Source: Octopus sinensis
Lineage: Eukaryota
NCBI RefSeq assembly: GCF_006345805.1
Contig: NC_043025.1
Coordinates: 6,758,001-6,822,000, forward strand
Reading direction: 5' to 3'
Length of the DNA: 64,000 nucleotides
Numbering within the stretch: position 1 is the stretch's first letter; the number at the start of each line of letters is the position of its first letter. The translations under genes were made by a program, and so were the position numbers. Below, piece after piece: positions 32,201-54,965 of this stretch. Below the pieces are notes generated by a model. It had not been told where the DNA came from, did no database searches, and worked only from the letters and a program-made list of their open reading frames with translations.

Positions 32201-33193
32201 TTGCACCCCGAGTACTGGAGTTGATGTCATCGACTCCTCCTCCTAATTGCAGGCCTTGTGCGTTTAGCAGAAAGTATTATTATTATCATAATTATTTTTT
32301 TAACCATATAGGCACAGGAGTGGATGTGTGGTAAGAAGCTTGCTTCCCAACCACATGGTTCTGGGTTCAGTCCCAATGCGTAGCACCTTGGACAAGTGTC
32401 TTCTACTATAGCCTCGGGCCTTGTGAGAAGATTTGGTCGATGGAAACTGAAAGAAGTCCATCGTATATCTATATATGTGTGCGTATAGGCGCAGGAGTGG
32501 CTGTGTGGTAAGTAGCTTGCTTACCAACCACATAGTTCCAGGTTCAGTATCACTGCGTGGCACCTTGGGCGAGTGTCTTTTATTATAGCCTCAGGCCAAA
32601 CAAAGCATTGTGAGTGGATTTGGTAGATAGAAACTGAAAGAAGCCTGTTGTATGCGCATATATATATATATATATATATATATGCATGTTTGTCCCCCCC
32701 ACCAACATCACTTGACAACCGATGCTGGTGTGTTTACGTCTCCATCACTTAGAAGTTCAGCAAGAGAGACTGATAGAATAAGTACTAGTCTTACAAAGAA
32801 TAAACTCTGTCCGGCGTGCTAATGATTCTGCAGTTTGCCCCCTTAATAATAATATCTGAATAAAAGACTAACTGGTCACGACTGGAACGTCTACTGAATG
32901 GGGACTGGCCTGTGGCTAAACAACAACAGTAACAAGGTAAGGCACATTAAATGATATAGTCCTAGATACACAAATTGCATTCCAAGAGGAATAAGATGCA
33001 GGGCTCTGTTAGAACAGCTTTGATCATAGGTATGTTGGATCAGAACTGACCCAGGGCTAAACGGCAAGATATATTTACGATTCATTAAACAACTGTAATT
33101 AAGAGGATGTTTTTTTATTAAGTGAAATACAGTTTATAGAATATAAAATATACAATCAACTGATATTATATACACACACATATAGACATACAT

Positions 33194-33226
<33 letters not shown>

Positions 33227-33811
33227 CATACATTCATACACATAGTTGTCTTTTGCATCAATGTTGTGTGTGTGCACGTGAACACACACATATTTAAGTG
33301 TGCATTTATATATACATACATTATATATATATATGACATATATATATATAAATATTTACATGTATGTATATATCTATATATGTACTTACAAATACATATT
33401 ATGTTTATGCAAATGTTATGAATGTTTGCTTGTGTGTGTATGTATACATATACACATATATATATATACACATATACATAAATATATATATATACATATA
33501 CATACATATATACATATACATACATACATATATATACATATACATACATACATATATATACATATACATACATACATATATATATACATATATACATACA
33601 TATACATACATATATACATACATATACATACATACACATACATACATATACATACATACATACATACATACATACATACATACACATACATACATACATA
33701 CATACATATATACATATACATACATACATATACATACATACATATATACATATATATATATATCTCAAGTATATATAAAGTCAGTTGATTGGGTAGTTGG
33801 AATTCTTCTTT

Positions 33812-33880
33812 CAAGAAATATTTTTTTCGGATCTTGCTAACTCCACGGAGCTTCTAGCAAGTTCTTCATACATTTACAGG
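33812..33880 (-). promoter_or_regulatory. Type II SECIS element of SELENOK
   Basis: aaatgt ATGAA GAACTTGCTAG AAG CTC cgtg GAG TTAGCAAGATC CGAA aaaa atattt: AUGA/GA core, 11-bp helix II, apical AAG plus mini-stem. Confidence 0.88.
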
Positions 33881-34149
33881 CACAGCTGCAAGGCTTCTGG
33901 TAAAAGAAGGATTCCTTTGGGTTTGTACATATGTATCCAGATGGTCCTCGACTAATGAGGAAACAGGGAGAAGGGTAGGGAGTGGTATGGGAGTGGGGAG
34001 GTGATGGGGGACCGTGGCTTGACCCCCTCCAGATGCTGCTGGAATCAAGCCAGGAAGAATATACAAGAACGTGTGGTGACACGTGTCCTCCTCCGTTCTA
34101 ACATGTTTGATGGTGTTAAACTCTGAGTAACATCTGTTGTAGCTGCTTA

Positions 34150-34760
34150 ATACTCAGGAGAATTCTAGATTAATCAGAAGCTGAAGCTCAAAGCAACTGG
34201 TGGACTGGCTAGATTAACCTAAATCTCAAGTTCACAGCATCTTGTGTACCGATCGAATTAACCAAAACAGATTCTCATTGCATCTGGTGACCCAGATTAA
34301 CTAAATGCTGGAGCACTTGGCAGGATGGACTAGCCAGAGCAACCAGAAGCTAGAGCTCAAAGTACCTGGTGAACAAGATTAACTAAAAATTGGAGCCCAC
34401 AGCATCTGGCCAATTTCACCAAAGACAATCTCCTAAGCATCTGGTGAACTAGATCAACCAAAAGCTCATAGCATCTATCAGGGTGGACAGGTTAGATTTA
34501 CCATAACCTGAAGCTTAAGGCTTAAATCTGGTAGACTGGCCAATTTCATCAAAATCCAGAGCTCAAAACATCTGGTAGACTAGATTAACCAAAAGTTGGA
34601 GCTAATAACATGTGGCAAGATGGTCTGTTCAACACAACCAAAAGCTGGAGCTTAAAGTATGTAGTGGATTAAGCAGAGCAGGAGCTCAATGCATCTGGTG
34701 TAGTGGCTAGATTAACTACAAGTTACACTCATATCATCTAGATTAGTACAGATGTAAAAA
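34150..34760. repeat. Degenerate ~40-45-bp minisatellite inside the SELENOK 3'UTR
   Basis: Recurrent AGATTAACCAAAAGCTGGAGCTCAAAGCATCTGGTGGACT-like units. Confidence 0.7.
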
Positions 34761-35002
34761 TGTTGATCACTCCAGATGACCAAAGTTACTTTTGAAATCA
34801 TGGTAGAGGGGGAGGAGGAGGAGAAGAAGAAGAAATTTTTAAAATGTTACAAAATCAGAGGAGAGAGAAAGAGGAAGATAAATGGGGAGTAGGGTGAAGA
34901 GGAGGGGGAGGAGAGGAAGAGGGTTTAGTAGAATTACTGTTTCCTGATTAGTGGGGACCATCTGAGGCAGTCTGTGGTCTTTTTAAGACAGCAGACTGCC
35001 TC

Positions 35003-35096
35003 CTAACCTCATCCACCTCCACTCATCGGTGGGGGACCAGGTATGTCACCGTCAAAATTTAATCTGCCCATGCGCCGCCTTGGAGGGGGTGGTGGG
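35003..35096 (-). CDS. SELENOK: Selenoprotein K, coding exon 5 (Sec codon at 35009-35011)
   Basis: tttttatttttcag|; (G)PPPPPRRRMGRLNFDGDIPGPPPMSGGG-UGA-G-TAG matches the SelK C-terminus PPRRMGRI...PPPMAGGUGR. Confidence 0.95.
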
Positions 35097-35461
35097 CTGA
35101 AAAATAAAAACGGGAAAAAATTTATAAACAAGAATGTAAATTAATAACATGTATAGTTATGTGTACATATGTGTATGTGTGTATAATGTGTATATATATG
35201 TGTGTGTGCTTGTGTGTATATATATATAGAGAGCAATAAGAAAATGGAGGGGATGAATAGGTGGTTCATCAACTTCAGTCTACTGGAGAAATAAAGGTAG
35301 AATGAGGTATTTTTACCTCTTGGCTGAAACAGCTGTAAGTTATTTTCCTATTGCGTGGCTTTTAAGCTAGCTCCTGTGGAGGGCTCTTCATTAGGCCTTG
35401 GGCCCAACAATGACACGTCATGCATTAAGTACATATAAAATTTTAGTAAACTTCAACAATA

Positions 35462-39580: not shown

Positions 39581-39633
39581 CCTCGTCCATCTGATCGGTA
39601 GCCGCCACTACCGTCGTGCTGGGTTGAGTTAGG
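39581..39633 (-). CDS. SELENOK: Selenoprotein K, coding exon 4
   Basis: ccttgcag| PNSTQHDGSGGYRSDGR GG|GTAAGT; phase 0 to 2; DGRG motif of SelK. Confidence 0.92.
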
Positions 39634-42948: not shown

Positions 42949-42967
42949 CGATATTAATGTCTTGAAA
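42949..42967 (-). CDS. SELENOK: Selenoprotein K, coding exon 3 (19-nt microexon)
   Basis: Long pyrimidine tract ...cctgatgcag|T TTC AAG ACA TTA ATA TCG|GTAAGT = (F)FKTLIS, matching SelK FFKTL. Confidence 0.92.
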
Positions 42968-46439: not shown

Positions 46440-46524
46440 AAAAGAATGATAACACCCACCAGTGCATACAGGACCTCTGGAATGATTGACAGCCGCCATG
46501 GAGACCTCGAAGATACTATGTTAC
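46440..46524 (-). CDS. SELENOK: Selenoprotein K, coding exon 2 (transmembrane segment)
   Basis: ccattttag| (G)NIVSSRSPWRLSIIPEVLYALVGVIIL TT|GTAAGT; SPWRLS is the SelK signature; phase 1 to 2. Confidence 0.95.
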
Positions 46525-50863: not shown

Positions 50864-50882
50864 CTTCAGAGACATACACCAT
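50864..50882 (-). CDS. SELENOK: Selenoprotein K, coding exon 1
   Basis: ATG GTG TAT GTC TCT GAA G|GTGAGT = MVYVSE(G), matching SelK MVYISNG; a possible acceptor at 50969-50970 suggests an upstream UTR exon. Confidence 0.93.
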
Positions 50883-52384: not shown

Positions 52385-53939
52385 GCTACTGCTGCTGCTA
52401 CTACTACTACCACTGCTACTGCTGCTGCAGTATCACACAAAATGCCTTGTGTGGAATTTGTTCCATTTCTTTAGGTTCGGGGTTCAAGTTCTGCTGAGCC
52501 TTAGCGTTGCCTTTCGTCCTTCTGGGGTCGGTAAAATAAAGAACCGGTAAAATACTAGGGTACGTTTAATTAATTGGAAAACAAGTGGTCAGTGCAAGTG
52601 TGAGCAGTGTAGTGTGATGTGGTGGTGTGCGGTGTGGGAGAGGTGAAGGTATGTGGGTTTGAGGGTGGGATGAGGTAATATGGGAGGGGTAGGATTTATA
52701 GGGATGGTAGGGTAGGAATGTGTAGGGTTGGGGTAACGATGGAGGGTTGAGTTGAGCAAAGGAGCGAAGAGAGAAAGTTAGTTCCTGTTCATGGCGAAGA
52801 CGGAGTCCAGATGGCTGGCTCCTGTGCAAGGACAATCTGAATACAGACAGGTGTTGTAAAGAATGACCAATAGGTGCAGGAGTGGCTGTGTGGGAAGTAG
52901 CTTGCTAGCCAACCACATGGTCCTGGGTTCAGTCCCACAGCGTGGCATCTTGGGCAAGTGTCTTCTGCTATAGCCTCAGGCTGACAAATGCCTTGTGAGT
53001 GGATTTGGTAGATGGAAACTGAAAAAAGCCTGTTGTATATATGTATATATATATGTGTGTATATGTTTGTTTGTCTGTGTTTGTCCCTCTAGCATTGCTT
53101 GACAACTGATGCTGGTGTGGTGTGTTTATGTCCCCGTCACTTAGCGGTTCGGCAAAAGAGACCGATAGAATAAGTACTGGGCTGACAAAGAATAAGTCCC
53201 GGGGTCGAGTTGCTCGACTAAAGGCGGTGCTCCAGCATGGCTGCAGTCAAATGACTGAAACAAGTAAAAGAGTAAAAGAGAGAGAGAGAGTAGAGCAGAA
53301 ATGGCACGAAACAGGGGTGCTGTTGCCAAGTCTGATGTCTCAGAAGTGTTCCGCAAACCGGTCAGCCAAGTGGTGTCCCATTTTACCGATGTACAGAGAA
53401 GGACAGAGAGAGCAGATGCAGTAGATGACATTGCTAGAAGTGCAGGTAAAGGAGTCAGTGATATGATAGGGTCAATGATGGCTGCCTGCGAGGATGGTGG
53501 TATTGGAGAGGTAATTAAGGTGGCGAGCTGGCAGAAATGTTAGCACGCCGGGCGAAATGCTTAGCGGTATTTCGTCTGCGTTACGTTGTGAGTTCGAATT
53601 CCGCCGAGGTCGACTTTGCCTTTCATCCTTTCAGGGTTGATAAATTAAGTACCAGTTACGCACTGGGGTCGATGTAATTGTCTTAATACCTATGTCTGTC
53701 CTTGTTTGTCCCCTCTGTGTTTAGCCCCTTGTGGGTAATAAAGAAATAGGTATTTCGTCTGCGTTACGTTGTGAGTTCGAATTCCGCCGAGGTCGACTTT
53801 GCCTTTCATCCTTTCGGGGTTGATAAATTAAGTACCAGTTACGCACTGGGGTCGATGTAATTGTCTTAATACCTATGTCTGTCCTTGTTTGTCCCCCTCT
53901 GTGTTTAGCCCCTTGTGGGCAATAAAGAAAAAGGTATTG

Positions 53940-54965
53940 GAGAGGTAAGGGCAAGTGCGGCTGTGTGGACAGAAGCAGGGGAATGAGCTGGCCTGGGAGG
54001 TTGGGTTAGGGAAGAAACTGTGGACCAGGAGGTCACGTAGGTTGTGGACTTGCTTGAAAGAGGGGAGGGGTCAGTTAGGGAAGATGTGCGAAGTGGAGGG
54101 GTCAGACTGGAGTCACCAGAAAGCTTGGAGAATGGTGCGTTGGAGAGGTAGGGTGGAGGGGGGGTGGGGGAGACGGGAGGAGGAGATGAGGTCATGGATA
54201 GTGGAGGACACCGTCTGTTGGCAGCTAGCTATGGGGTTGGAGGGCAGTAGAAGGAGGTGTCTTGAAGTTGGCAGAGAGCTTTGGCCTTGTAGAGGTCCAT
54301 GTGCTGCGCCACCACAGCTCCGCCCTTGTTGGTTGGTTTTATGATGATGTCTTTGCAGCGTCGGAGACATCAAAAGGCCGAGAGATCGGCAGGGGAGGTG
54401 TTCAGATATTGGAGATGCCTGGAAAAGTCAAACCGGTCCATAGCACACTGTCAGACGCCTGCAAAGAGATTTGACAAAAGAGGGGAAGGAGTCTAGTTGT
54501 TCGCGGGAGAGTGAGGTCGCACTGATACAGTCGTCAATATAACGACCATATAGTTCAGGAGTGGGACCAGTGAAACTTGAGAATATTTGGGCCTCAACGT
54601 AGCCAATGAACAGGTTCGCATAGTTGTGGCCCATTCTCCTTTCCATGGCCACTCCTGAGATCTGCTGGTAACAATTACCCGCAAACATGCAAAGAGATTG
54701 ACTTCTTGGAACTGGCCAGGGGCTGGCGTCCACTGGGATGGTCAGCGGCCTAGGTCGGTGAAGCAGTCCTCCTCATTAGATGCAGGTAGAGTGTTGCAGA
54801 ATAGCATACACAACCTAATAGGGAGCACAAAGCTGTGGATATTGGCACAAGTCCAAAATTGGTTGTTGGATGGAGTGAGGGGGAAGAAGCGCAGGCCCCT
54901 ACCGAGGAGGGAGCGATCCACCTCAGAGAGGGGAAGATCTGGAGGAATGGTAACAACAGACTGAA
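53940..54965 (-). mobile_element. Decayed Penelope-like (GIY-YIG type) retroelement ORF fragments
   Basis: GLRFFP, SQWTP, IIIKPTNKGGAVV, YQQISGVAM...NYANLFIGYVE...YGRYIDD. Confidence 0.85.

Follow-up and report, generated by a model that had tools for sequence, protein, structure and literature searches.

The window analysed here, the whole 64-kb stretch of Octopus sinensis DNA, carries on its minus strand a selenoprotein K gene (SELENOK) split into five coding exons. Exon 1 (50864..50882) starts with the ATG at 50882, encodes MVYVSE and is followed by a GT donor. Exon 2 (46440..46524), which encodes most of the transmembrane segment, exon 3 (42949..42967), a micro-exon of 19 nt, and exon 4 (39581..39633) are all flanked by AG/GT ends, and the last coding exon (35003..35096) finishes with ...MSGGG-UGA-GGU-UAG. 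Splicing of the five exons yields a 270-nt frame comprising 87 residues, UGA, Gly and UAG. The spliced product is identical at 87 of 87 residues to the database protein P0065 (XP_029653076.1, selenoprotein K, Octopus sinensis), a match of which exon 4 forms part and for which the micro-exon is required. P0065 terminates at the UGA, where the gene reads on as U-G-stop.

When P0065 was searched against the genome, all three protein-level matches were exons of this gene. The spliced product shares 83 of 87 residues with its Octopus vulgaris counterpart (P0002), which scores 79.3 bits on the Pfam family SelK_SelG (PF10961; cut-off 23.3) and which, used as query, retrieves 62 proteins, mostly named selenoprotein K. 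Taken singly, octopus exons score below the Pfam cut-off, exon 2 by itself reaching an E value of 0.0024. A profile-free search with the last exon returned four matches, among which P0002 alone was recognised as SelK, the other three being long proteins. Another SelK-like Pfam match (L001) proved to be a GGT/AGT microsatellite and was rejected.

The features that define the SelK/SelS family, including a Sec residue near the C-terminus, have been described (PMC10650576). The octopus product contains a single hydrophobic 19-mer at residues 18-36 (mean hydropathy 2.4), the predicted N-terminal transmembrane segment, followed by a 48-residue tail in which G (12), P (10) and R/K (6) account for 28 positions, and it contains no Cys. 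Together with the UGA second from the end, the hydrophobic segment and the G/P/basic tail supply the family features. In common with selenoprotein K, the product is a short, predicted single-pass protein with a G/P/basic tail and a presumed Sec among its last residues; it differs in that the octopus gene ends in U-G, which the database form lacks. The second-last position of Sec also recalls SELENOS, which ends in GG-U-G.

Two candidate decayed elements were noted by eye on the minus strand around these exons. The segment 46860-47500, within intron 1, resembles a decayed Tc1/mariner transposase, and fragments at 53250-54950, upstream of the gene, resemble a decayed Penelope-type retroelement.

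The penultimate UGA and the selenocysteine machinery

The in-frame UGA (35009..35011, minus strand) is codon 88 of 89 and is presumed to specify selenocysteine, in agreement with the second-last position of Sec described for the SelK family (PMC10650576). At the point of the UGA, 63 of the 64 database proteins compared terminate in GG, and in none does U or C follow it; the assignment of the Sec position therefore rests on the literature and not on an aligned residue. Annotation of a C-terminal Sec codon as a stop is a documented error that includes SELENOK, described for vertebrates only (PMC12822975), and the GG-ended entries fit this pattern. They may also reflect how the collection treats U, and do not prove Sec directly.

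The genome encodes components of the selenocysteine pathway. From 39 model matches to tRNA-Sec in the genome, four loci were scanned and all four carry the anticodon TCA; SepSecS is present as a multi-exon gene on contig C2; and an eEFSec domain was found at 141.5 bits. No tRNA gene lies in the 64-kb window. There are at least four full-length tRNA-Sec (TCA) genes (L006-L009, on C24, C6303 and C3). Most animals carry one or two tRNA-Sec genes. Another SepSecS-like match, at C8594:24681-25913 (L010-L012), consists of four close pieces, apparently intron-poor or intronless and containing one stop, and is possibly a processed copy.

The SECIS element and its predicted transcript

A first-pass annotation of this DNA, made from its letters alone, had proposed a type II SECIS at 33812..33880. 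The element proper, comprising core, helix II, AAG bulge and helix III, lies at 33826..33869 on the minus strand. Its 5' core consists of A33869 followed by UGAA at 33868-33865, and its 3' core of CGAA at 33829-33826, so that AUGAA and CGAA provide the RUGAN/NGAN non-canonical quartet. The first base of the 3' core is C rather than the K of the KGAW consensus, a substitution that NGAN patterns accommodate. Helix II (33864-33854/33830-33840) is paired at 10 of 11 positions, with an A·A mismatch at position 3 and a G·U pair on top, and lies within the type II range of 11-13 pairs with at most two mismatches; the top G·U pair has a pair probability of 0.09 because of an alternative register. Atop helix II, AAG (33853-33851) is unpaired, as expected of the AA(R) motif, and above this bulge, as is characteristic of type II elements, stands helix III (33850-33848/33843-33841), three pairs closing a CGUG loop with probabilities of 0.96-0.97. 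The AUGAA/CGAA core, the 11-bp helix II with one mismatch and the apical AAG with its mini-stem had all been claimed by the first-pass annotation and were recovered here as described. So was its spacing of about 1.1 kb on the strand shared with the UGA-containing ORF: between UGA 35011-35009 and the SECIS core lie 1,139 nt of the minus strand, within the mammalian range of 207-5,207 nt (PMC3316567). Human SelK likewise carries a type II SECIS (PMC6844570, PMC2761289).

The base of the element is less regular. A 6-bp AU-rich candidate for helix I adjoins the core, with a pairing probability of about 0.01 in the full fold, and the helix I of the strict pattern is a loose match only. Folding predicts instead that the element is closed by a longer, distal basal stem of 19 pairs (33915-33894/33818-33799), which together with a predicted side hairpin (33891-33874) and the SECIS forms a domain spanning 33799..33915. 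This domain folds at -32 kcal/mol (z -3.44; none of 200 shuffles as good), the mean pair probabilities of its outer two segments being 0.98-1.0. With the SECIS closed in this way, the functional unit probably exceeds the 69 nt first proposed: a SECIS does lie at 33812..33880, but the predicted closing stem extends outside that interval, to 33915/33799. The element thus resembles eukaryotic type II SECIS elements (human SELENOK, SELENOS and GPX4) in its RUGAN/NGAN core, 11-position helix II, AAR bulge below helix III and location in the 3' UTR about 1.1 kb past the UGA. It differs from them in opening its 3' core with C in place of G or U, in scoring below the Rfam model RF00031, and in its weak adjacent helix I, in place of which the 19-pair basal stem and side hairpin are predicted.

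Four SECISearch patterns were re-implemented from the supplement of PMC3753652, and the element matches all four. The strict pattern by itself is not rare, occurring eight times when both strands of the window are counted. None of the other seven occurrences has an upper stem as stable as that of this element (-11.3 kcal/mol, against -8.1 for the runner-up). When the 1.2-kb UTR was dinucleotide-shuffled 1,000 times, 12 shuffles contained the strict pattern and 2 a match with an upper stem as stable; a simple SECIS pattern of our own was found in 6 of 1,000 such shuffles. The 69-nt piece folds modestly better than shuffled sequence (z -1.84; 9 of 200 as good), and a 111-nt piece around the SECIS gives z -0.69. 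An Rfam scan of the window at gathering score gave no match, and lowering the threshold to E up to 10 over 33600-35200 gave 19 matches, mostly microsatellite look-alikes and none of them SECIS. The Rfam SECIS test is uninformative, since RF00031 found no match anywhere in the genome, controls included. A search for the SECIS motif in metagenomes returned no matches. With the gene and the anatomy considered together, the element is almost certainly the type II SECIS of SELENOK.

That the mRNA runs through the SECIS is predicted from the absence of canonical poly(A) signals, as neither AATAAA nor ATTAAA occurs between the stop codon and the element. Weak variant hexamers precede it (ACTAAA at 34929, TTTAAA at 34843), and the first candidates past it are CATAAA at 33409, TATAAA at 33310 and AATAAA at 33119, beyond a long TATG array. 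No strong donor-like motif was found in 33400-35096. Of 24 sequencing runs, 20 contain at least half of 140 words drawn from 33780-35100; none of the 20 is recorded as RNA, the RNA type of 14 of them being a guess, and we do not count these runs as evidence for the transcript. Directly behind the SECIS, in the predicted 3' UTR, 33307-33763 is occupied by a TATG/TA microsatellite of about 450 nt. Farther upstream in the UTR, 34150-34720 contains degenerate direct repeats of about 44 nt, the largest family having eight copies at 60-85%; in a genome search these repeats were confined to this locus.

A copy of the distal UTR at 93% identity (L005; contig C9, 1417-1686) starts exactly at 33966, the inner end of the long-range 3' arm described below, takes in the SECIS and stops near 33404. 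The TATG array is largely missing from this copy and is thus probably a recent expansion. The SECIS core in L005 is intact, its fold is poorer (z -1.55), and the strict and default patterns failed on it. As an orphan SECIS it could in principle act on the UGA of a neighbouring gene.

A predicted proximal hairpin and a predicted long-range duplex

Neither the identity of the gene nor the basal stem formed part of the first-pass annotation, and the same is true of two further predicted structures, a hairpin past the UGA and a pair of long-range arms. The hairpin (34964..35002, minus strand) is a proximal stem-loop of the SRE/PSL type with 16 pairs (11+5) and a 2x2 internal loop, and it starts at 35002, 6 nt past the UGA. 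Its predicted stability is -26.4 kcal/mol (z -7.1; 0 of 200 shuffles as stable), the highest of any 42-nt UTR segment when segments were sampled every 3 nt. In human SEPN1 (SELENON) the SRE stem is 16 bp long and its spacer 6 nt (PMC3159437), and both values agree with those of the octopus hairpin. Proximal stem-loops are predicted in most human mRNAs with a C-terminal Sec, SelK included; the human SelK stem-loop has 8 pairs, its deletion was without effect on reporter recoding and its function is called unknown (PMC6844570). The results reported for the SelS stem-loop conflict (PMC6844570, PMC3628699). The octopus stem is twice the 8 bp of human SelK and, in contrast to the SELENON SRE and the SELENOS and SELENOK stem-loops (PSL/SL1), lies entirely within the UTR.

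The base directly after the hairpin opens the 27-nt 5' arm of the predicted duplex (34937..34963), which forms 25 Watson-Crick pairs with a 3' arm at 33939..33966, both on the minus strand. Between them a UTR segment of 970 nt (33967..34936), in the middle of which the ~44-nt repeats lie, would be looped out. With the coding part held open, the mean pair probabilities of the duplex are 0.97-1.0 at both 37 and 20 C, and its formation is predicted to shorten the path from the UGA to the SECIS core from 1,140 to 64 steps. The 5' arm lies 0 nt from the hairpin, and the 3' arm 23 nt from the SECIS basal stem. In the full fold the UGA region also pairs with the end of the UTR. Within 34950-35030, part of the 5' arm can pair with coding sequence before the UGA, enclosing the UGA and the UAG (z -5.2); this is a possible alternative fold, which a translating ribosome would open.

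It is unlikely that the complementarity of the arms is random. Their alignment score was matched by none of 1,000 shuffles and none of 500 block shuffles, while the ungapped 16-mer of the arms alone was equalled in 9 of 1,000 shuffles. Among 8,528 tiles of the window, and leaving aside its own complement, the 5' arm finds its best partner in the 3' arm, pairing at -39.7 kcal/mol versus -26.4 with the next unrelated tile. Of 108 real genomic tiles, 7 contain an inverted match of equal quality. With two genome matches at up to three mismatches the arm does not represent a repeat family, and no target-site duplication was found at the outer flanks of the arms; on these two grounds a transposon origin was rejected.

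An old fragment elsewhere in the genome (L003; contig C11, 1457-1760) contains the end of the last exon, the hairpin and the 5' arm. In this decayed copy 13 of the 16 hairpin pairs are kept, three are lost and one is gained, and hairpin and arm show no extra conservation (10/66 versus 27/152 differences, p 0.70). Where the gene has the Sec TGA, L003 reads TAA, and its next stop follows only after a longer tail, which may hint at an older SELENOK C-terminus. The surroundings of the two copies, searched over 40 kb for L003 and 20 kb for L005, contain no further exons or UTR. No intron is spanned and no poly(A) tail is seen in either copy, which leaves an mRNA origin possible but unproven. Of two loci found with a protein query for orthologous UTRs, one (L023) was spurious.

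Among known elements the duplex recalls the SPUR of SELENOS, which acts by sequence; its pairing with the SECIS is short and only proposed (PMC6844570). The octopus duplex shares with SPUR, and with the long-distance pairings of viral readthrough, the arrangement in which an element behind the proximal hairpin would bring the SECIS to the ribosome decoding the UGA. It differs from SPUR in its 25 predicted pairs, in a partner that lies outside the SECIS and in the 970 nt that it spans. The accessory elements listed in section 2.1.2 of a 2021 review are SREs and SPUR only (PMC8704476). Our literature searches, with most subscription papers outside their scope, found no publication on this gene under octopus, cephalopod or mollusc SelK and SECIS, and for long-range pairing of SECIS elements only the SPUR paper, a viral recoding review (PMC8310308), a readthrough paper and a database paper.

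Alternative explanations and a model for selenocysteine insertion

The UGA might be a true stop, the 87-residue database protein real and the SECIS-like element a relic or a chance fold. The entries of three Octopus species do end at GGG, Rfam is silent and the strict pattern recurs in the window. This explanation is nonetheless very remote, since core, AA and helix lengths are all intact at a quality that shuffling reproduced twice in 1,000, the genome contains the Sec machinery, no Cys substitutes for Sec, a GG terminus acts in mammals as a degron (PMC7090344) and this kind of annotation error is a documented one (PMC12822975). Scarcely more probable is that the SECIS is real but missing from most transcripts, through earlier termination or splicing, so that a Sec-less product dominates. 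One human SELENOS variant sets a precedent (PMC3628699, PMC6844570), and the two weak hexamers at 34929 and 34843 precede the element; against it, AATAAA and ATTAAA are absent between the stop and the SECIS, the earliest CATAAA and AATAAA lying only at 33409 and 33119, and 33400-35096 offers no strong donor-like motif.

A more serious alternative leaves the SECIS as an ordinary element and gives duplex and hairpin no role in recoding: they may descend from an inverted duplication of long standing, or have another purpose, for example in mRNA stability, localisation or A-to-I editing. ADAR editing is heavy in cephalopods. We regard this explanation as fairly probable. Inverted matches as good in 7 of 108 genomic tiles and the lack of a conservation signal in L003 favour it, as does the dispensability of the human SelK hairpin in the reporter (PMC6844570). 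Against it stand the positions of the arms, which abut two functional landmarks (the hairpin at 0 nt and the SECIS basal stem at 23 nt), the lack of a repeat family or target-site duplication for the arms, and the single-locus nature of the repeats they enclose. A real role for the long-range duplex in recoding is graded as possible but doubtful.

For the SECIS itself, the explanation we favour is that a type II element in the predicted 3' UTR of octopus SELENOK very probably serves the UGA at 35011-35009, likely by binding SBP2 for insertion of Sec. The first-pass annotation had taken the element as support for recoding of this UGA, a view strengthened by its place as the second-last codon of a five-exon SELENOK gene. 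By analogy with the known pathway, SBP2 would bind the GA/GA kink-turn of the SECIS and eEFSec would deliver Sec-tRNA to the UGA, giving a predicted ER membrane protein of 89 residues that ends in GGG-U-G. Where recoding fails, the GGG-ended product might be cleared by a KLHDC2-type ligase, as KLHDC2 recognises such an end on truncated mammalian SELENOK (PMC7090344).

The folds described above have led us to propose, tentatively, a model whereby the octopus SELENOK mRNA acts as a recoding platform, in which an SRE-sized hairpin stacked on a 25-bp duplex docks the SECIS near the ribosome. The 16-bp hairpin, 6 nt past the UGA, would meet the ribosome during UGA decoding; the duplex, stacked on the hairpin from behind, would extrude a loop of 970 nt; and the SECIS domain would be held on a 23-nt linker beside the hairpin, favouring Sec over termination. 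The SECIS and the gene family are already known, and it is the predicted hairpin-plus-duplex bridge that would be new, a part of the interpretation that we hold with considerable reserve.

The gene model presented here corrects a database protein that lacks its last two residues, the selenocysteine included, and whose present C-terminus would, in mammals, be a signal for degradation. The action of a SECIS more than 1 kb distant on one UGA is usually ascribed to protein factors. If the model is true, octopus SELENOK would exemplify an RNA-only, base-paired route by which a distant eukaryotic SECIS reaches its codon. A 25-bp duplex lends itself to clean tests by disruptive and compensatory mutation and would, if real, make the relation between UGA-SECIS proximity and the efficiency of C-terminal Sec insertion directly testable.
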